64,000 bases of DNA from Bryobacterales bacterium (GTDB lineage: Bacteria > Acidobacteriota > Terriglobia > Bryobacterales > UBA6623), in NCBI GenBank assembly GCA_026713545.1, contig JAPOOG010000072.1, positions 17,411-81,410 of the forward strand, in the 5' to 3' direction. Numbering within the stretch: the first letter of the stretch is position 1; every line of letters starts with the position of its first letter. Below are positions 36,636 through 53,180 of this stretch, piece by piece. Both the position numbers and the translations under genes were made by a program. The notes under the pieces are model-generated. The model was not told the DNA's origin. It saw only the letters and a program-made list of their open reading frames with translations, and made no database searches.

Positions 36636-36711
36636 GGGCGCGTAGCTCAATTGGTAGAGCAAGTGACTCTTAATCACTAGGTTCGGGGTTCGATTCCCTG
36701 CGCGCTCACCA
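36636..36711 (+). tRNA. tRNA-Lys (anticodon CTT)
   Basis: GGGCGCG acceptor stem, D arm AGCTCAATTGGTAGAGC, anticodon arm AGTGA-CTCTTAA-TCACT, GGTTCGATTCC, encoded CCA; 76 nt. Confidence 0.97.
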
Positions 36712-43798: not shown

Positions 43799-45183
43799 TG
43801 TGTGCGCCGCATCGCCGCCAGACGTTTGTCGGCTTCTTCGAGCGCATCGAGAAGTACGGAGGAGGCCGTACCTCCGGGAACGACGTGATTGCTCAGCGCA
43901 CTCCGTGCCGTGAGAAGATCGCGCGCCTTGTCGTCGAACTCAGAGGCGATCTCCTTCAGCTCATCCGTCGTCCAGTCCTGGGGTCTGTTGCCGGTGCGAA
44001 CGCTCTCGAGTACAAGCTTGCCCACGATCTGATGGGCGCGGTGGAAGGGGACTCCTTTTTTTGACAACTCCTCCGCGAGTGCAGTCGCGGAAACCCAGCT
44101 TTCATCAGCCGCAGCTTCCATGCGGTCAGGATGGATGGCGGCAGTCTGAACGGTAAGCTTCATGACAGCCAGGCAGCCGGAGAGCTGCGCGGCGGCGTCG
44201 AAGACAGGTTCCTTGTCTTCTTGCAAGTCTCGGTTGTAGGAAAGAGGGAGACCCTTGAGCGTCATCATCAGTGAAAGCAGGCTCCCGCTGACGCGTCCGG
44301 ATTTGCCGCGCACCAGCTCACAGGCATCGGGGTTCTTTTTCTGGGGCATCAGGCTGGAACCGCTGGTGACCTCGTCGCCCAGCTCGAGGAAGCCGAACTC
44401 CTCGCCGGAATAGAGAATCCAATCCTCGGCCAAGCGGCTGAGGTGGAGCATCGTGCCGGCCGCGGCGTAAAGGAAGTCCAAGGCGAAGTCGCGGTCGGAG
44501 ACGGCATCGATGCTGTTGGCGGAAAGCTTGCTGAAGCCCAGCTCGTCGGCCATCGCTTGCCGGTCGAAGGGGAATCCGCTGCCGGCGAGCGCACCGCTGC
44601 CGAGAGGAAGAACGTCAGTGCGGCGATAGGCGTCGTCGAAGCGCTGCCAATCGCGTGCGAACATCTCGAAGTAAGCCAGCAAATAGTGAGCCCATAAGAC
44701 AGGCTGCGCGCGCCTCAAGTGCGTGTAGCCGGGAAGCAAAGCGTCGGGCTCGCGCATTGCGAAGTCGAGCAGCACGCCCATCAACCCCACGAGAAGCTCT
44801 TGGATGGCATTGATTTCGGTCTTCATCCAGAGGCGGAAGTCGGTGGCGACTTGCTCGTTGCGGCTGCGTCCGGTGTGGATCTTTTGGCTCAAGGCGCCAG
44901 CCTTCTCGTCGAGCTTTCGAATGACGAAAGTGTGAATGTCTTCGTCTTCCGCCTCGCCGAACATATCTGTTTCTCGCGCTTCCGAAAGGATTTCGTCGAA
45001 TGCCCGGTGAACGATCTCGCGCTCCTCGCAGGTGAGAATACCGACACTCGCCAAAGCCGAAGCGAATGCTTTCGAACCGAGGATGTCCGCCTCGAGGAGC
45101 CTGCGGTCAAAATCCAACGAGCCGGAGAACTGTTCGAACAGTTCGGCCGGACCATGCTCGAATCGACCGCCCCAAAGCTTCAT
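43795..45183 (-). CDS. argH: Argininosuccinate lyase
   Basis: KLWGGRF, HTGRSRNEQVATD, GSSLMPQKKNPD, YNRDLQEDKE. Confidence 0.97.
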   Translation of the reverse strand: MKLWGGRFEHGPAELFEQFSGSLDFDRRLLEADILGSKAFASALASVGILTCEEREIVHRAFDEILSEARETDMFGEAEDEDIHTFVIRKLDEKAGALSQKIHTGRSRNEQVATDFRLWMKTEINAIQELLVGLMGVLLDFAMREPDALLPGYTHLRRAQPVLWAHYLLAYFEMFARDWQRFDDAYRRTDVLPLGSGALAGSGFPFDRQAMADELGFSKLSANSIDAVSDRDFALDFLYAAAGTMLHLSRLAEDWILYSGEEFGFLELGDEVTSGSSLMPQKKNPDACELVRGKSGRVSGSLLSLMMTLKGLPLSYNRDLQEDKEPVFDAAAQLSGCLAVMKLTVQTAAIHPDRMEAAADESWVSATALAEELSKKGVPFHRAHQIVGKLVLESVRTGNRPQDWTTDELKEIASEFDDKARDLLTARSALSNHVVPGGTASSVLLDALEEADKRLAAMRRTQ

Positions 45184-46400
45184 GATTCATCCACGCCGGT
45201 CATCACACGTGAGCGCGCTTCGATCGGCAGACCGATCAGGTTGATGAAGCCACGTGCGTCCTTCGGTTCGTAGTCTGCGCCCATGGTGAAGCTGGCGATG
45301 TCGAGTGAGTAGAGCGAATACGGTGAAGTACGGCTGAGCACATCGATGCGGCCCTTGTGGAGCCGCAAGGTGACTTCGCCGGAGACATTCTCCTGGGTTT
45401 TGTCGACGAAAGAGTCGAGCGCCTCACGGAGAGGCGTGAACCACAGCCCGTTGTACACAAGGTCGGCGTAGTCAAGCGCGAGTTTCCGCTTGCAATGAGC
45501 TGTGGCTCGATCAAGCGTGAGCGCCTCGAGCTCGCGATGGGCCGTCATGATCGAAGAGCCGCCGGGCGTCTCGTAGCATCCGCGCGACTTCATTCCGACG
45601 AAGCGGTTTTCGACCAGATCGACTCGGCCCACTCCGTTTTCGGAGCCAAGGCGGTTCAGATTCGCAAGAAGATCGGCCGCGCCAAGCGCCTCGCCGTCGA
45701 TAGATACCGGGATCCCTTTTTCGAAGCCGATCGTCACCTCGGCGGGCTCGTCGGGGGCGTCGTCCGGATCGACCGACCACGTCCAGACGGAGTGGCTCGG
45801 CGAGTTGACCGGATCCTCCAGTTCGCCGCCCTCATGGGAGAGATGCCAGAGATTGCGGTCGCGGCTATAGATCTTGGCTTTTGTGGCATCAATCGGAACG
45901 TTGTGCGACTGGGCGTAGTCGATGGCGTCCTCGCGGGATTGGATGTCCCAGATTCGCCAAGGAGCGATGACCTTCAGATGGGGTGCGAGGGCCTTGTAGG
46001 TCAGCTCGAAGCGGACTTGGTCGTTGCCTTTTCCGGTGCAGCCGTGGCAGAGGGCGTCGCAGCCGGTTTCGAGTGCGACCTCGACTTGCCGTTTCGCCAA
46101 CAGAGGCCGGGCGATCGAAGTACCAAGCAGGTACTTGTCTTCATAGACCGCGCCGGCGCGCACCACCGGCCATACATAGTCGCGCACGAACTCTTCTTGC
46201 ATGTCGTCGACAAAGATCTCGGAAGCGCCGCTGTCCTTGGCCTTCTGCTGAATACCAGCTAGCTCCTCGTCACCCTGGCCGATGTCGCCGCACACAGCGA
46301 CTACCTCGCAGTCGTACTGCTCACGCAGCCAAGGAATGATGATGGATGTATCAAGGCCCCCGGAATAGGCGAGGGCGATTTTTTTCGGGTTTTTCTCCAT
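45180..46400 (-). CDS. argG: Argininosuccinate synthase
   Basis: LAYSGGLDTS, HGCTGKGNDQVRFE, KSRGCYETP. Confidence 0.97.
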   Translation of the reverse strand: MEKNPKKIALAYSGGLDTSIIIPWLREQYDCEVVAVCGDIGQGDEELAGIQQKAKDSGASEIFVDDMQEEFVRDYVWPVVRAGAVYEDKYLLGTSIARPLLAKRQVEVALETGCDALCHGCTGKGNDQVRFELTYKALAPHLKVIAPWRIWDIQSREDAIDYAQSHNVPIDATKAKIYSRDRNLWHLSHEGGELEDPVNSPSHSVWTWSVDPDDAPDEPAEVTIGFEKGIPVSIDGEALGAADLLANLNRLGSENGVGRVDLVENRFVGMKSRGCYETPGGSSIMTAHRELEALTLDRATAHCKRKLALDYADLVYNGLWFTPLREALDSFVDKTQENVSGEVTLRLHKGRIDVLSRTSPYSLYSLDIASFTMGADYEPKDARGFINLIGLPIEARSRVMTGVDES

Positions 46401-46495
46401 GGCAACCTGTGCTTCACATGGCAGTAGAAGATTTATTTTGCTTTGCTATCTCGAAAGAATCGCTGGGAAGGCTCGTTGGTCGCCACCGTGATCCC

Positions 46496-47461
46496 TCAGC
46501 CATCCTCCTCGGTCAAGAACATCAGCAATAGAGCCTTCTGGGCATGCAACCGGTTCTCGGCTTGATCAAACACGACCGAAAAGGGCGACTCGATAACCGA
46601 GTCGGTCACCTCTTCTCCGCGAGACGCCGGGAGGCAATGCATAAAAACCGCGTTGGAAGCCGCGTGCGACATCAGTTCGTCATCGACTTGAAAATCGGCA
46701 AAGGCGGCGCCGCGTTGCTGCGTCTCGGCTTCCCAACCCATGCTGGTCCAGAGGTCGGTGTAGACCGCCGAGACACCCGACACGGCTTCGCGTGGGTCGA
46801 ACGAAAGCTCGATCTTGGCAGAGGACGTCCGCGCCAACTCGCAAGCCCTCGTGACGACTTCAGGATCGGGCCCATACTCGGGTGGAGTCGCCACGATGAG
46901 TGACACCCCCAGTCGAGCGGCGCACAACAGAAGAGAATGGCAGACATTGTTGCCATCACCGACGAAGGCCATCTTGAGGCCTTCGAGTTGGCCAAAGTGT
47001 TGCGTCAAGGTCTGAAAGTCCGCTATCGCCTGGCAGGGATGATATTTGCCACTCAGCGCATTGATGACGGGTACCGACGACCATTGTGACAACTGTTCGA
47101 GGGTCTCTTGCTTGAACGTGCGGGCCACGATCGCATCCACCCAGCGGTCTAGATTCCGCGCGATGTCCTTGACCGGCTCGCGCTCGCCGATGCGGCCGTC
47201 ACGGTGATCCTGGAACACGGTGAAGCCCCCAAGTTGCCGGATGGCGAGCTCGAAGGTCAGTCGGGTGCGCAGCGACGGCTTTTCAAACAGTAGCGCGATC
47301 GATCGCCCGGTCAAGCTTGCTGCGTAGTCGCACGGCGCATTCTTGACTCTGGAAGCTAGCCCAATCAGCGCTTGCAACTCTCCCGAGGTCAGGTCCGTGT
47401 CCGTGAGCAGGTGCGGGGCCTGTATTGATTGAACGGGGCTCTTGCTCACAGCGGAGGTCAT
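46496..47461 (-). CDS. argF: Ornithine carbamoyltransferase
   Basis: FEKPSLRTR, HPCQ, GDGNNV, YTDLWTSMG, HCLPA, QAENRLHAQKA. Confidence 0.95.
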   Translation of the reverse strand: MTSAVSKSPVQSIQAPHLLTDTDLTSGELQALIGLASRVKNAPCDYAASLTGRSIALLFEKPSLRTRLTFELAIRQLGGFTVFQDHRDGRIGEREPVKDIARNLDRWVDAIVARTFKQETLEQLSQWSSVPVINALSGKYHPCQAIADFQTLTQHFGQLEGLKMAFVGDGNNVCHSLLLCAARLGVSLIVATPPEYGPDPEVVTRACELARTSSAKIELSFDPREAVSGVSAVYTDLWTSMGWEAETQQRGAAFADFQVDDELMSHAASNAVFMHCLPASRGEEVTDSVIESPFSVVFDQAENRLHAQKALLLMFLTEEDG

Positions 47462-47480
47462 GGGATCGGCCAGCGGTCAG

Positions 47481-47518
47481 AATTAATAAATTGACACTGT
47501 AATGAATAATTACACGTT
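47481..47518. promoter_or_regulatory. Two tandem ARG-box-like operators upstream of argF
   Basis: AATTAATAAATTGACACT and AATGAATAATTACACGTT, 18 bp each, 2 bp apart, AT-rich; argR is in the operon. Confidence 0.65.
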
Positions 47519-47594
47519 CAGGCCCGCATTGCAAGCGCCTCTTGGTGGAGCGTGACAGATGCGGGACGCCGCGCCGTCGAGAACCGTCAGATCT

Positions 47595-48896
47595 TCATGC
47601 CTGAGTGATCTGGTCAAGCAGATCGTAGAACTCGGGAAAGGAAACGGATGCGGCATCGGCGTTTCGCAGTTCGGACTCGCGGTTCGCCTTCAGAGAAGCG
47701 ACCGCAAAGGCCATAGCAATTCGATGGTCGCCGAATGAATCAAGCCGAGATGCGCGGAAGGATTGCCGGCCGGGGATGCGAAGGCCATCGGGACCGACCT
47801 CTGCAAGCACACCCATGCGCGCAAGGTTGTCGGCGACGGTGGTGATGCGGTCCGTCTCTTTCAGCCGCAGCTCGCCGGCATCGCGGATGATCAACCCGTC
47901 GGCACTGGCTGCTCCGAGCACAGCGAGCATCGGGATTTCATCGATCACTGCGGCGGTCATGTCTCCTTCGATGACTCCGCCTTGCAGCGGCGCCTGTCGG
48001 GCTGACTCAGGTCCGCAAACAAGGATTCCCCCAATCGGCTCGCCATACTTGCGGCTACGATCGAGGATTTTGATGTCGGCGCCCATGCCGCAGAGCACGT
48101 CGAGTAGGGAGGTCCGTGTCGGGTTGAGCCCGAGACCTTCGATCTTCAACTCGGAGCCGGGGAGCAGCAAGGCGGCGCCAATAAAGAATGCGGAGGAGGA
48201 GATGTCGCCCGGCACCGTTAGTTCCCGAGCGGTCAACCCGGGTTGACCGAGAAGGCGGATTTCGTTGCCTTCGACCTCGACATCGGCTCCGAACTCGCCG
48301 AGGGCGATTTCGGAATGGTCTCGCACAGGGAGGGGCTCGCGCACGCTGGTCCATCCGGGTGCGGATAGGGCGGCGAAAAGAACGGCGGTCTTGACCTGGG
48401 CACTGGCAACAGGGAGTTCGTAGTCGATGGCGCTGAGCCCGCCTCCGAGGATGCGGAGGGGAGGGAAGTTGCCCTCGTGGGCATCGATGCGGGCGCCCAT
48501 CTGCTCGAGCGGAGTGATGATGCGCTTCATGGGCCTCCGGGAGAGTGATGCATCACCGGTTATTTCCGAGATGAATGGTTGCCCCGCGAGGATCCCGGAG
48601 AGCATTCGGATCGTCGAACCGGAGTTGCCGGCATCGAGTATCCCGGCCGGGGCCTTGAGCCCGGAGAGGCCGCCTCCTTCGACGATCACCTCGTTCCCGT
48701 CGCGGTCTATTGGGACGCTCAGTCTGCGGAGGCATTCGAGCGTTGCGGCGCAATCGGCGCCGGTGGAATAGTTTCGGATGACGCTGCGGCCCTCGGCGAC
48801 GGCGGCCAATATGGCGTAGCGATGGGAGATCGACTTGTCACCGGGGAGCCAGATGCGACCCTTTACGGAGCGGGCTGGTTGCAGTTTGCGCGTCAT
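47595..48896 (-). CDS. aroA: 3-phosphoshikimate 1-carboxyvinyltransferase
   Basis: PGDKSISHR, DAGNSGST, ASAQVK, IDEIP, ELRLKETDRI, GDHRIAM. Confidence 0.97.
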   Translation of the reverse strand: MTRKLQPARSVKGRIWLPGDKSISHRYAILAAVAEGRSVIRNYSTGADCAATLECLRRLSVPIDRDGNEVIVEGGGLSGLKAPAGILDAGNSGSTIRMLSGILAGQPFISEITGDASLSRRPMKRIITPLEQMGARIDAHEGNFPPLRILGGGLSAIDYELPVASAQVKTAVLFAALSAPGWTSVREPLPVRDHSEIALGEFGADVEVEGNEIRLLGQPGLTARELTVPGDISSSAFFIGAALLLPGSELKIEGLGLNPTRTSLLDVLCGMGADIKILDRSRKYGEPIGGILVCGPESARQAPLQGGVIEGDMTAAVIDEIPMLAVLGAASADGLIIRDAGELRLKETDRITTVADNLARMGVLAEVGPDGLRIPGRQSFRASRLDSFGDHRIAMAFAVASLKANRESELRNADAASVSFPEFYDLLDQITQA

Positions 48897-48906
48897 CGGG
48901 AAACGG

Positions 48907-49308
48907 CTATTGTGGGGCCTTCACCGCCCGCGATGCGAGACGGCGAACGAAGTCTACGTCGCCGTCGAGGAAGTCAAACGCCGGCAGGTCACTGCGTTGC
49001 GCCCAGCGAACCTCGGCGAACTGCTCATAGCACGGTTCGCCGTCGAAAGAAGTCACCGCGAAAAAGATCAGCTCCATCGGCTTTCGTCCCGGGTATTCAT
49101 AGTGGTAGCGCTCGATTTCCGAATCGATCCGCGCTTCGATCGACAGCTCTTCGCGCAACTCCCGCAGCAACGCCTCGGCGGGCAGCTCACCGTCTTCCAA
49201 CTTGCCTCCCGGGAACTCCCACTTGCCGTCGTAATCCTGATCGGCGCGGCGGCGGCAGATAAGAACGCGGCCATCACGCTCGATGACAGCGGCAGCGACG
49301 GTAATCAT
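48907..49308 (-). CDS. mutT: NUDIX hydrolase, MutT-like
   Basis: KWEFPGGKLEDGELPAEALLRELREEL Nudix box. Confidence 0.85.
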   Translation of the reverse strand: MITVAAAVIERDGRVLICRRRADQDYDGKWEFPGGKLEDGELPAEALLRELREELSIEARIDSEIERYHYEYPGRKPMELIFFAVTSFDGEPCYEQFAEVRWAQRSDLPAFDFLDGDVDFVRRLASRAVKAPQ

Positions 49309-49346
49309 GTCAGGAGTGCGCGGACGAGCAGAGTCCGGAGCGGCGT

Positions 49347-49616
49347 GGGCGACCCGCCCCTCGCGGCGTGAACCCCGGGCGAGAAAGTCGTTCTTGAGTC
49401 CGGCGACCGGTCAGGGTTCGCCAGAGAACGCAGACTCCAGGCTCGAGTACCGTCGGCCTGAAAGCACCGTCCTACCGTAGCCCCGAGGGGCCGGGTGCGA
49501 ACGAGTTGCCTCCGGCTACGGATTGTAAAACAGAGTTCCCCCCGGGTTTCGAGCGGGGCGTGCATCCATTCCCCAGCCTGTCGTCCCAGGGTTCACACCG
49601 CGAAAGGCGGCCGCCC
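49347..49616 (-). ncRNA. Unassigned ~270-nt structured RNA candidate
   Basis: 35-bp terminal helix plus three abutting internal hairpins; non-Watson-Crick pairs are G-U on the minus strand. Confidence 0.6.
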
Positions 49617-49629
49617 TGCACACTCAGTA

Positions 49630-51708
49630 TTACATCACTTTGGGCGAGGGAATACCCATCGTGTCAAGTACGCGGGTGAGTTCGCCGAGGAAGAACTGAG
49701 CCATCCACAGCAGGAAGGTTTTCCTGAAGTCATCGGGCTCATTGAGAATGTGGTGCTGATGATAAAAGTTGTTGAACATCTGTGCGAGCCGGAAAGCGTA
49801 GCGGGCGAGTTGGGCGGGCTCTTCGGCAGCCACAGCGCGATCGATGGCCCACTCTCCGCGCGAGGCCTCGAGCAGAAGTTGCCAGCAGTCCTCTTGGGCG
49901 AGTTGCTCTTCAAAAGCCGTCCGATCGAGTTGCTTGTCGAAATCGGGGAGCGACTCGCCGCGCTCTGCAAGCGTTCGCAAAATGTTACGGGCACGAACCG
50001 ACGCGTATTGAACATACGGCCCTGTTTCACCGTCGAAGCTGAGTGCTTCTTGAAGGTCGAAAGCGATTACCGTCGTCCGTGTGAAGCGCAGCATGAAGTA
50101 GCGCAGGGCGCCGACAGCGATTTCCGAGGCAATCCTGTGCTGCTCTTCTTCCGGCGTGTCGGCGTGGCGGCTGTGGACTTCTTCGAGCGCCTTGTCGATC
50201 AGCATATCGATCAGGTCGTCGGCCTTCACGCCGAGTCCCTTGCGGCCCGACACCTCGACGAACGAGCGCCTCTTGTCTTCGTCGGTCAGTTCAATGCCAA
50301 GTTCGGCGCAGCAGCGCGGCGTCAGCGCCACCATCTCGTAGGAGAAGTGGACCGAGTCACGCGCCTGCTGCTCGAAGCCGAGTGATCGCAGCCCGGCTCG
50401 AACGACATCCTGAAGGTAAGACTGCCGTACGTCGATGACGTTGTAGATTTTCTCGCCGTGTCCGAAGCGCGGCGCACTCGCGTCGCCTTCACCGGCAGAG
50501 GAGGCCCATAGCTCGCGGCCGTCCGTGTAGGTGCGGAAGGACACGTAGCGGAAATCCTTGTCGATCAGGCCGAACTTCCAAAGCTGGTAGGCAATGTCTT
50601 TCCCGACGTAAGTGACAGTACCGTTCGAGCGGACAATAACCTTATCCTGATCCTGGTCCTCCGTGATTTCCGATTGGTTCACAGCGGAACCCTTCTTGCT
50701 GAGTTTCCGGGTCGTCTTCAGTGACTCTTGGAAGAGGCGAGCGGGCATGATCCAGCAACCCTTGTTCTTGCCCTCGGCTTCGAGGACGATCGCGCCATGC
50801 TCTTTGAGAAGTTCAAAGGCTGAATCCCAGAAGCGTAGATGCAGAATCTCACTCTCGCGCGGCAGTACATCGTACTCGACGCCAACGCGCCCCATCGTGT
50901 CAAGGTGCTTGTTCACGATGGCGTTTGAGACGATACGGCCCGTCTCGGCGAGTTCACCTTCATCGGATTCAATGGCGTGAAGAGTTGCGGCGCGCCACTC
51001 TAGAGATTCGGGTTCGGCTTTATAGTGCTGCGAGGTGCGGGCGTAGAGGTCCCAGCAGCGATAATCGAAGCGAAGATCGCGGTCGTCGACAAGGGCCTGC
51101 ACTTGCCCGGGTGTTTTCTTTTCCAGGAAGTGGAATCCCACGACGACGTCGGCGACCTGCACGCCGGTGTTATCGATATAGTTCTGGACTTCGACGGTGT
51201 GACCGAGCCGGCGAAGCATGCGAACGAGCGTGTCGCCCATGACGGCGTTGCGCAGGTGTCCGATGTGCGCCGCTTTGTTGGGATTAATGTTCGTGTGCTC
51301 GACGATGATTTTGGGGGTGCTTGACTCCGGAGCAGTGGCGGTTCTGCAAAGGAGGCTCTCTCCATAGGCGCCGCGGTCGAATCGGACATTGATGTAACCC
51401 CCAGCGGCGACTTCGAATAAGGCGACACCCTCGATAGGCGGAAGTTCGGTGACCATCTCCTCGGCGATCCGGCGGGGGGCTCGCTTCAGCGTCTTCGCCA
51501 ACGAAAAGCACACCGGCAGCGCGAGTTCGCCAAAGTTGGATTGCCGCGGCTGCTCGATGACGACGGAGATGTTCGCGTCATATCGTTGCCGAATGTGCGC
51601 TGCGACCGCGTCGCGTACACGATGGGCGAGAACAAGGAACACGGGAAGCTGACTGGGCTGGGGTGGCGCGGCGGTGTTCGGCGAGCCCTTCGAGGGAGTA
51701 GAATTCAT
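49630..51708 (-). CDS. argS: Arginine--tRNA ligase
   Basis: EHTNINPNKAAHIGHLRN, SGRKG, FDGETGPYVQYA. Confidence 0.95.
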   Translation of the reverse strand: MNSTPSKGSPNTAAPPQPSQLPVFLVLAHRVRDAVAAHIRQRYDANISVVIEQPRQSNFGELALPVCFSLAKTLKRAPRRIAEEMVTELPPIEGVALFEVAAGGYINVRFDRGAYGESLLCRTATAPESSTPKIIVEHTNINPNKAAHIGHLRNAVMGDTLVRMLRRLGHTVEVQNYIDNTGVQVADVVVGFHFLEKKTPGQVQALVDDRDLRFDYRCWDLYARTSQHYKAEPESLEWRAATLHAIESDEGELAETGRIVSNAIVNKHLDTMGRVGVEYDVLPRESEILHLRFWDSAFELLKEHGAIVLEAEGKNKGCWIMPARLFQESLKTTRKLSKKGSAVNQSEITEDQDQDKVIVRSNGTVTYVGKDIAYQLWKFGLIDKDFRYVSFRTYTDGRELWASSAGEGDASAPRFGHGEKIYNVIDVRQSYLQDVVRAGLRSLGFEQQARDSVHFSYEMVALTPRCCAELGIELTDEDKRRSFVEVSGRKGLGVKADDLIDMLIDKALEEVHSRHADTPEEEQHRIASEIAVGALRYFMLRFTRTTVIAFDLQEALSFDGETGPYVQYASVRARNILRTLAERGESLPDFDKQLDRTAFEEQLAQEDCWQLLLEASRGEWAIDRAVAAEEPAQLARYAFRLAQMFNNFYHQHHILNEPDDFRKTFLLWMAQFFLGELTRVLDTMGIPSPKVM

Positions 51709-51992: not shown

Positions 51993-53180
51993 ATGCCTGA
52001 GAACTTTCTTGCCTCGATCTACACCTATTCCTGGGATCTCACTGACGAGGGCCTCGACCGCTCACTCAACCGCATTGCGGACATCGCACATTGCGACGAA
52101 GTGATGCTTACACCCTCGTACCACGTATCGACATACTTTCTGCCTCACAACCCGACGCGGCCTCTGTATTACGGCGAGGATGGAGCGGTTTACTTCCATC
52201 CGGACTACAAGCGGTACTTCCGTACTCGTATCCGTCCGCATGTCAGCGATGTGGTGGATCAAGAAGGCTATTTCGAGCGGGTTGTCGAAGCGATCAACAA
52301 GCGCGGACTCAAGTTCAGCGCCTGGATTGTCTATTGTTACAACCACTATCTGGCCCGTACGTATCCTGAGTTCGCGAAGCACGACGCTTTTGGCAATCCG
52401 TATCTCGCGCAGCTCAGCACGGCCCCGCCGGACACTCAAGAGTACCTGGCCGCGCTGACGGAGAACATCGTTCAGGTTTATAAGCCGTCCGCAGTGCACG
52501 TCGAGTCGCTGTCTCGCCTGCGGTGGCGCTACGGGTTTCGTAATCCCAAGGTGCTGTCGGAGATCACCGATCGGGTGGAGTTTCTAATGGGATTGGATTT
52601 CAATCCGGCGGCGGTGGCTTACTGCACCAAACAAGGCTTTGACGGTCCGGAGTTCCAGAAATCGGTGGTGAACTGGCTGCGGCCGCGGTTGGCGCGTCTC
52701 CCCACAGAGAGTGACCGCGATCCGGCGGATGAGGCCTGGATCAAGGAGGCTTTCGACGGGCGACTCAATGACTGGCTGCATCTTCGGAGAAAACAAACGA
52801 CGGCACTCTGGACAAGGATCGCGAATATCATCCATGACGGCGGAGCCAAGATTCAGTCCGTCTTGGCTACGAGTGAATCACAGCAGAGGACGGACATCAG
52901 CCCTTCTGCGAACCGCTATCTGGACCGTGTGACGGTAGGTCCGTTCCAGTCCATAGTAGAAGGTAAAGCCGGCGTCCAGCACATCAAAGGTGCGATCAAC
53001 GAAGGTGGGGGCGTGATGGTTTCGACTCAGCCCGGACGAATGACGCGAGCTGAGCCGTTGGAGGAGGAGGTCAGCATCGCCAAGAAGTCAGGCGCGGGCG
53101 GTTGCACTTTCTACAACTATGGGTTGCTTCGTGAAGAGCAGCTCGGGTTCGTAGGCTCGGCGATCAGAAGAGTCGCATGA
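51993..53180 (+). CDS. Hypothetical protein, possibly glycoside-hydrolase-like TIM barrel
   Basis: 395-aa ORF with RBS; YSWDL...SYH...AVYFHP pattern; family only tentative. Confidence 0.55.
   Translation: MPENFLASIYTYSWDLTDEGLDRSLNRIADIAHCDEVMLTPSYHVSTYFLPHNPTRPLYYGEDGAVYFHPDYKRYFRTRIRPHVSDVVDQEGYFERVVEAINKRGLKFSAWIVYCYNHYLARTYPEFAKHDAFGNPYLAQLSTAPPDTQEYLAALTENIVQVYKPSAVHVESLSRLRWRYGFRNPKVLSEITDRVEFLMGLDFNPAAVAYCTKQGFDGPEFQKSVVNWLRPRLARLPTESDRDPADEAWIKEAFDGRLNDWLHLRRKQTTALWTRIANIIHDGGAKIQSVLATSESQQRTDISPSANRYLDRVTVGPFQSIVEGKAGVQHIKGAINEGGGVMVSTQPGRMTRAEPLEEEVSIAKKSGAGGCTFYNYGLLREEQLGFVGSAIRRVA

Follow-up and report, generated by a model that had tools for sequence, protein, structure and literature searches.

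The window analysed here, a 64,000-nucleotide (nt) stretch of the genome of a Bryobacterales bacterium (Acidobacteriota, lineage UBA6623; GenBank assembly GCA_026713545.1, contig JAPOOG010000072.1, positions 17,411 to 81,410), carries directly behind the arginine-tRNA ligase gene argS an element that, as encoded on the minus strand, consists of a long closing stem, P1, and a branched interior (Table 1). The argS stop codon lies 13 nt from P1, and in the host genus 38 nt separate the other end of P1 from the start codon of a MutT-like NUDIX hydrolase gene. This gene is followed by aroA, argF (ornithine carbamoyltransferase) and argG (argininosuccinate synthase), all assigned by Pfam and running in one direction after argS (window 45180-49308, minus strand), an arginine-related gene cluster thus surrounding the element in the host genus. 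An earlier reading of the letters without database searches, referred to below as the sequence-only reading, had proposed an unannotated RNA of about 270 nt at this place. The analysis reported here shows that the element, named argS-3' RNA, is a real structured RNA, whose family is confined to one clade and seems not to have been described before.

Table 1. Features of the argS-3' RNA locus and RNA-library contigs mapped to it (window coordinates)
Feature	Position	Strand	Basis or remark
Entire encoded element, precursor form (P1 closing stem, branched interior)	49347..49616	minus	fold z -6.07; match of covariance model R1
Probable mature RNA, ~235 nt	49364..49598	minus	ends of X1 and X3; X10 and X12 shorter, inside; flanks uncovered
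P1, 5' strand	49585..49616	minus	minimum free energy fold and consensus; outer 49616-49599 probably removed, inner 14 nt retained
P1, 3' strand	49347..49379	minus	minimum free energy fold and consensus
P2, 5' strand CAGGC	49576..49580	minus	pairs with 49438-49442
P2, 3' strand GCCUG	49438..49442	minus	pairs with 49576-49580
P2a hairpin (GGGG...CCCC)	49555..49574	minus	stem conserved, no covariation
Invariant G-run motif CC-GGGGGG-AACUCU	49532..49546	minus	invariant columns in 25 sequences; possible mini-hairpin P2b or tertiary contact
P3 and P4	49450..49521	minus	P3 49521-49514 with 49458-49450, enclosing internal loop and P4 hairpin 49504-49467
P5 domain, extended imperfect hairpin	49385..49437	minus	base 49437-49434 with 49388-49385; tip P5a 49425-49421 with 49403-49399
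Contig X1	49364-49598		RNA library
Contig X3	49365-49598		RNA library
Contig X10	49373-49569		RNA library
Contig X12	49435-49588		RNA library
argS (arginine-tRNA ligase, 692 aa)	49630..51708	minus	Pfam; TIGR00456 292 bits against cut-off 261.65
MutT-like NUDIX hydrolase gene	48907..49308	minus	Pfam/NCBIfam; context in host genus, not constant partner

The minus strand of the region 49340-49625 folds with a minimum free energy (MFE) of -161.2 kcal/mol, against a mean of -128.6 (standard deviation 5.4) for shuffled sequences (z -6.07), and none of 200 shuffles folds as well; the plus strand of the element region, in contrast, reaches -133.8 kcal/mol with a z of -2.56. Across genomes, the covariance model R1, built from 12 sequences, scores 59-292 bits in the sense direction and at most 38 bits in antisense, the window itself giving 287.8 bits at 49345-49617. 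The strand asymmetry from which the sequence-only reading had argued for structure at the level of a minus-strand RNA is thus seen by both measures. The closing helix is likewise borne out by the MFE fold, in which 49616-49585 pairs with 49379-49347 over 32 consecutive 5' positions, interrupted by a single 3'-side bulge and including five G-U pairs as counted by hand in the sequence, where 35 base pairs (bp), two bulges and the same number of G-U pairs had been claimed.

Homologous sequences support this fold by covariation. An unfitted MAFFT alignment of 25 sequences from six genera (A5) yields an RNAalifold consensus of 46 pairs, in which 97.1% of the cells are paired, compared with 83.4% after shuffling and 38-51% when the partners are slid against each other, and compensatory changes occur in 26 of the 46 pairs. 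In a second, model-fitted alignment (A6) with 71 pairs, of a kind that leans towards its model, 94.3% of the cells are paired against 80.5% in the shuffled control and 43 of the 71 pairs show compensatory changes, so that covariation is strong on either alignment. Five helices (P1, P2, P3, P4 and P5) carry such changes. The consensus P1 joins 49609-49585 with 49379-49355, plus an outer extension, and is nowhere shorter than 23 bp among the 25 sequences; its 23 consensus pairs are 98.3% paired across them and 16 show a compensatory change. The 5-bp P2 is nearly invariant, its two compensatory cases being C-G to U-A and A-U to C-G, while the model-fitted alignment gives compensatory changes in three of seven pairs in P3, 11 of 14 in P4 and six of nine in the P5 domain. 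The possible mini-hairpin P2b at the G-run shows one-sided changes only, and a helix search on the MAFFT alignment, passed by P1 and this mini-hairpin alone, supported no pseudoknot or extra helix.

From P1 the consensus opens into a three-way junction of P1, P2 and P5, and beyond P2 into a second multi-helix junction that holds P2a, the G-run motif and the P3-P4 arm. Among single-sequence folds of ten representatives, the long P5-domain hairpin appears in all ten and the full P1/P2/P3-P4 layout in six, from the genera here numbered g1 (the host genus), g7, g3 and g2, the interiors of g11 and g4 differing. The nucleotides at the junctions are near-invariant, and the tips of the hairpins are variable, often with UNCG-type loops or stable tetraloops; fixed junctions with variable tips are the pattern that an RNA working through its folded core would leave. 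No conserved open reading frame (ORF) was found inside the element, and since stop-free frames shift in both frame and position among close relatives, it is regarded as non-coding.

The interior proposed by the sequence-only reading fared unevenly. The GGGG...CCCC element on the 5' side is present (49574-49571 with 49558-49555), and the third of three directly abutting hairpins, placed at 49424-49400, corresponds to P5a at 49425-49399. The first two hairpins had to be given up, the homologues (n=25) showing instead a nested covarying fold in which P3 encloses P4, as had the GUUUU/AGAAC pairing said to close all three, since the partner of AGAAC is a nearby GUUCU within P5, the 3' hairpin domain. 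In the host genus CCGUAGCC and GGCUACGG can pair as the first hairpin, whose second strand is absent in g2, g4 and g11; in the alignment of 25, neither the first two hairpins nor the GUUUU/AGAAC closure is kept beyond that genus.

Known RNA families do not account for the element. In a scan of the whole window against Rfam 15 at gathering thresholds no family matched it, and the region 49200-49750, searched at E up to 10, gave just two short sub-threshold matches of 17.4 and 11.8 bits. The sequence-only reading had recognised no hallmarks of transfer-messenger RNA (tmRNA), RNase P, signal recognition particle (SRP) RNA or T-box leaders. A tRNA gene at 36636-36708 on the plus strand (71.9 bits) is the sole Rfam match of the window at the gathering threshold. 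RNase P RNA (C86, 292 bits), SRP RNA (C46, 72 bits) and tmRNA (C159, 179 bits) were located on other contigs of the genome, which rules out the element as the sole genomic copy of any of them. In the published literature, as far as its text could be searched (argS, RNA motifs, Acidobacteria, 6S), nothing relevant was found, and the matched passages of PMC5737381, 10.64898/2026.10.21.760802, PMC11109978, PMC8632094 and PMC2864571 contain no argS-linked motif. Two motifs in Table 1 of PMC2864571, 'Solibacter-1' (Solibacter usitatus) and 'Soil-1', have no Rfam accession there. By Rfam and by these passages the element is apparently undescribed, an Rfam scan being unable to exclude Solibacter-1 or Soil-1, which were never deposited in that database. 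The option of a novel class of non-coding RNA (ncRNA), one of several that the sequence-only reading left standing, is therefore supported by the lack of an Rfam family match, the strong covariation and the empty literature search. 'New' is meant here in the sense of family membership, as no known family fits; the novelty of the mechanism is a separate matter.

Some likeness to other large RNAs is nonetheless evident. OLE, raiA, ROOL, GOLLD and HEARO are large orphan structured bacterial ncRNAs, all of them in Rfam, and argS-3' RNA resembles them in exceeding 200 nt, in having several junctions with invariant nucleotides and variable capped tips, and in being detectable in metatranscriptomes. 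Their models, however, gave no match; the range of argS-3' RNA is narrow (six genera of one family), and its strict argS linkage is without counterpart among them.

A BLAST search of the element's own 5.6-Mb genome returned one full-length copy, the other 23 matches being at most 25 nt long with E values of at least 0.0047; a 23-nt match at G000:C3 (E 0.005; G000 is the window's own genome) has no Rfam match, lies in apparent coding sequence and looks like chance. Of 60 relatives searched by BLAST, 10 carry the element, and a pattern scan of GTDB species genomes found it on 11 contigs, all from metagenome-assembled genomes, of which ten are titled Bryobacterales bacterium and one Acidobacteria bacterium. 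R1 detects a single sense-strand copy in each of 26 of the 77 genomes of the host family (f1), spread over six of its 12 genera: g1 (7/7, including the window's own genome), g2 (7/7), g3 (1/1), g4 (4/5), g7 (4/4) and g11 (3/3). As the sole miss in g4 is a 1.8-Mb genome of 74% completeness, the element is retained in every near-complete genome of its clade. The other 50 genomes of the family are without a match (g10 0/31, g9 0/7, g6 0/5, g8 0/4, g12 0/2 and g5 0/1), as are 150 other Acidobacteriota. A more general 149-position core model built from all six genera (R2) draws the same bimodal picture across the order, with matches in 23 of 72 genomes of f1, none of 71 of family f2 and none of seven of family f3, hence in none of the 78 Bryobacterales genomes outside the host family. 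A search with filters off of the sequence behind argS, made in a single genome from each of g5, g6, g8, g9 and g10, found no element and gave low-scoring short hairpin matches only, none of them downstream of argS. One metagenome scan added three further contigs, all g1-like and with the same synteny.

Of the 27 rows in a maximum-likelihood ArgS tree, the 22 that carry the RNA group in one clade (support 97/93), to which g5, g6 and g8 are sister, g9 and g10 lying outside. This topology points to a single origin at the base of a six-genus clade within one Bryobacterales family, followed by what would be continuous retention. The long terminal inverted repeat might in itself suggest a mobile or repeated element, akin to miniature inverted-repeat transposable elements, a retron or a Y RNA, and an RNA-structured mobile repeat had been among the options of the sequence-only reading. 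One copy per genome, a fixed synteny, inheritance that looks vertical clade by clade and the lack of any match in plasmids or viral contigs lead to the rejection of such an origin, and the single full-length genomic copy speaks in the same way against a dispersed repeat. For a retron, no reverse transcriptase lies among the Pfam-annotated neighbours (argS, NUDIX, aroA, argF and argG), no dedicated search having been made. The Ro (TROVE) domain occurs in two of the 77 genomes of the family, both in g8, and the Y-RNA reading is excluded because it occurs in none of the 26 that carry the RNA.

The same distribution bears on whether argS-3' RNA could be a divergent 6S RNA, as the sequence-only reading also allowed. 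6S RNA binds the sigma-70 RNA polymerase holoenzyme and templates product RNAs, and its fold is a rod with a closing stem, a large central bubble and a terminal stem. The host family seems to be without canonical 6S: Rfam 6S is found in none of 36 genomes of f1 compared with 14 of 17 in f2 and one of seven in f3, and a search of the window's own genome with the 6S model (RF00013) gave no match at E up to 1, in a test of limited sensitivity whose control was positive in five of 14 reference genomes. In four of the six f2 and f3 loci examined, 6S lies directly upstream of ymdB, with zapA on its other side in one, and the zapA-ymdB gap in the window's own genome measures 93 nt and contains no RNA. 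At this zapA-ymdB locus (L073, G000:C86:56366-60145, positions 1120-1522) the ancestral 6S site looks emptied when compared with L032 and L035-L037. A 6S-like (or Ms1-like) polymerase-binding RNA could thus have replaced the missing one, and argS-3' RNA does share with 6S its single copy, apparent stability, size of a few hundred nt and long stem pairing the 5' and 3' ends, as well as a place beside a protein gene and a probable maturation from a longer transcript. It differs, however, in matching no 6S model even at E up to 10, in lying beside argS rather than upstream of ymdB, in its length of 235-270 nt against about 185 nt, and in its covariation-backed three-way and multi-way junctions, which are not those of a rod with a central bubble. 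Moreover, the 50 genomes without the RNA represent six f1 genera that are themselves without Rfam 6S in the genomes searched, so that 6S loss and argS-3' RNA gain are not coupled. With a branched fold, and an RNA present in only six of the 12 genera of a family without Rfam-detectable 6S (36 genomes), descent from or replacement of 6S appears improbable. The absence of a recognisable 6S from this lineage is a separate puzzle.

Across the 26 loci, argS is the only constant neighbour of the RNA, standing upstream on the same strand in 25. In 23 of these loci at most about 106 nt lie between the two; one further locus has 228 nt, and about 880 nt separate them in another, where DUF4145-containing ORFs (L051:654-1421, plus strand; G018, g2) have been inserted between argS and an intact RNA. 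In the 26th locus (L055; G027, g2) a Tn3-family transposase gene lies upstream (L055:1863-3269, minus strand), and the RNA is again intact. In the window, a 395-amino-acid ORF at 51993-53180 (plus strand) runs divergently from argS; it is 75-97% identical in g1 relatives and has no Pfam or NCBIfam match. The downstream side is less constant, with a NUDIX gene in 16 of the 26 loci (g1, g3, g7 and g4), none in g2 and g11, and a convergent next long ORF in all three g11 loci, which in L053 is the gene of an AMP-binding enzyme. In six g2 loci (L050, L052, L054, L055, L059 and L061) the first ~100 nt after the RNA form a shared non-coding stretch, starting ...AGGCGCATC(A/C)TTTCGCAA..., with no obvious gene in the 200-500 nt beyond it; this stretch may represent a terminator region or a further element.

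The label 'between argS and mutT' given by the sequence-only reading therefore holds for the host genus and is not the defining context, as NUDIX is missing downstream in ten of the 26 loci. Since the downstream gene varies, the RNA is not a leader for one particular gene, and because it is also intact where a Tn3 transposase or DUF4145 ORFs part it from argS, it is regarded as an independent unit. A riboswitch or leader controlling NUDIX-aroA-argF-argG would suit the host genus, where the element ends so shortly before the NUDIX start codon of that operon. Given the ten loci without NUDIX and the convergent ORFs of g11, such a role is very improbable, and no terminator or anti-terminator was seen, neither a sigma-70 promoter nor an intrinsic terminator consensus being found in 49200-49900; the RNA, furthermore, accumulates as a separate piece, as set out below. 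The leader reading was rejected on the variable and convergent downstream genes and the lack of a terminator consensus.

The constancy of argS makes a regulator linked to tRNA-Arg or to the ArgRS enzyme conceivable, either a tRNA mimic or a T-box-like sensor that would bind ArgRS or tRNA-Arg and adjust the activity of the enzyme or the expression of its gene. CGUAG, invariant in the 5' strand of P3 (window 49514-49521), reads as the reverse complement of CUACG, which occupies positions 32-36 of the tRNA-Arg(ACG) anticodon loop (gene at G000:C85:13439-13515), and the CGU of this block pairs within the RNA with ACG in the 3' strand of P3. As in T-box leaders, a structured RNA is here tied to an aminoacyl-tRNA synthetase gene, and an Arg codon followed by A (CGUA) stands in an invariant block. 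The chance that 235 nt contain at least one 5-mer complementary to an anticodon loop of the five isoacceptors is, however, estimated at about 0.7, and CGUAG lies in a helix rather than a loop. Three g1 members (G001, G003 and G008) have lost a UGG able to pair with the CCA end, all five tRNA-Arg genes have a discriminator G, and T-box and tRNA models gave no match. Unlike T-box leaders, moreover, argS-3' RNA lies 3' of its gene instead of 5', places the codon in P3 and has no conserved UGGN and no visible terminator or antiterminator, all of which leaves this link a slim prospect.

Evidence that the element exists as an RNA comes from public RNA libraries. Sixteen RNA-library runs contain part of the stretch, eight of which, from two studies, hold one third of the sampled words; the runs are labelled as sponge metagenomes. 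Four runs, each from a different study, were mapped, and every one gave a single contig of 154-235 nt that falls wholly within the element, evidence that the RNA is expressed and builds up as a separate piece. In the same runs argS and NUDIX have zero contig cover, which is not proof of their silence. Contigs X1 and X3, from two studies, are 100% identical and share the end at 49598, a position that pairs in P1 with 49366, leaving a 3' overhang of 2 nt in X1 and 1 nt in X3, a geometry taken from contig ends at a depth of 5-8 rather than from read ends. The nearest strain differences within g1 lie 5-7 nt beyond the contig ends, which are therefore not obviously break points of the assembly.

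A staggered cut with a 2-nt 3' overhang is the geometry left by RNase III. The 32 bp of P1 exceed the substrate length of this enzyme (at least 20 bp, about two turns of double-stranded RNA), P1 is long enough for it in every genus that has the RNA, and the genome encodes an RNase III homologue, rnc (PF14622, 116 bits, C72). Excision from a transcript within the long stem is thus likely. An RNase III-processed element of the argS transcript, again one of the options of the sequence-only reading, is supported as far as contigs allow, by a stem of at least 23 bp, opposed ends, the rnc homologue and the lack of a promoter or terminator. RNase III-matured stable RNAs include those released from the precursor stems of rRNA and tRNA, and small RNAs (sRNAs) derived from 3' untranslated regions (3'-UTRs) are cut from mRNA 3' ends. 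With these, argS-3' RNA shares a long imperfect double-stranded stem formed by its flanks, contig ends that in X1 lie opposite each other with a 2-nt 3' overhang, and a co-oriented position directly after an ORF. Typical 3'-UTR sRNAs usually act through short seed pairing; argS-3' RNA, in contrast, is much larger, has a more intricate fold and belongs to no known family.

The same stem could be read as a purely cis-acting, intercistronic or 3'-UTR element of processing and stability, in which an RNase III site would set the 3' end of the argS mRNA and uncouple the downstream genes, the interior having no function of its own. That the element follows the argS stop codon directly in 23 of the 26 loci would fit such a site, as would the length and conservation of the double-stranded stem, the contig ends inside it and the lack of promoter and terminator consensus already described. 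A processing stem, however, needs no covarying branched interior of about 200 nt with near-invariant junction motifs; RNA libraries assemble the excised piece and not the mRNA, and the RNA is intact where insertions part it from argS. A role confined to cis is accordingly unlikely, if less so than the other alternatives weighed here.

The explanation favoured by these observations, and probably the correct one, is a new clade-specific, stable structured ncRNA that is co-transcribed with argS and excised in P1, probably by RNase III. In the host genus, argS-3' RNA would have no promoter of its own and would be transcribed together with argS. RNase III, the likeliest nuclease, would then cut both strands halfway along P1 in a staggered fashion. 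The product, about 235 nt long, would end in a 14-bp stem whose 3' end overhangs by 2 nt, and it would outlast the flanking mRNA, the outer half of P1 serving as a processing stem only. A trans-acting role of the mature RNA may then reside in the conserved core of its junctions, a scaffold to which proteins bind being the most plausible form of it.

Several points weigh against this account. The sequences come from six genera only, and the covariation counts include inherited changes. The tree that suggests one origin is that of ArgS, a linked gene, and is midpoint-rooted with one representative per RNA-less genus. In g2 and g4 the spacers between argS and the RNA measure 70-106 nt and leave room for a promoter, so that co-transcription may not be general. 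The ends derive from assembled contigs of low depth (4.8-7.9) and not from reads, their coincidence being a weak hint, and contigs, checked for cover in RNA libraries only, cannot show strand, true termini or abundance. RNase III is the probable nuclease, though another may make the cut, and it is conservation by itself that suggests a trans-acting scaffold.

More tentatively, and with somewhat less than even expectation, argS-3' RNA may found a new class of large, complex-folded ncRNA, born once, matured by RNase III and with a biochemical role unlike that of the catalogued families. Within such a class, a dedicated ribonucleoprotein or a catalytic RNA is one possibility. The boldest version, likewise a possibility, is that the anticodon loop of tRNA-Arg(ACG) competes with the RNA's internal ACG for the CGUAG of P3 and thereby reports the status of tRNA-Arg to ArgRS or argS.

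Large multi-junction bacterial RNAs are rare, and those whose function has been solved have repeatedly revealed new biochemistry. To our knowledge, the orphan classes OLE and raiA still await the assignment of a function. For a candidate found by computation only, the evidence for argS-3' RNA is unusually clean, comprising one apparent origin, retention, covariation and RNA libraries from four studies. Its strict attachment to argS offers a concrete first hypothesis and its apparent excision by RNase III a simple assay, in hosts that are little-cultured Acidobacteriota, where RNA-based regulation is almost unstudied.

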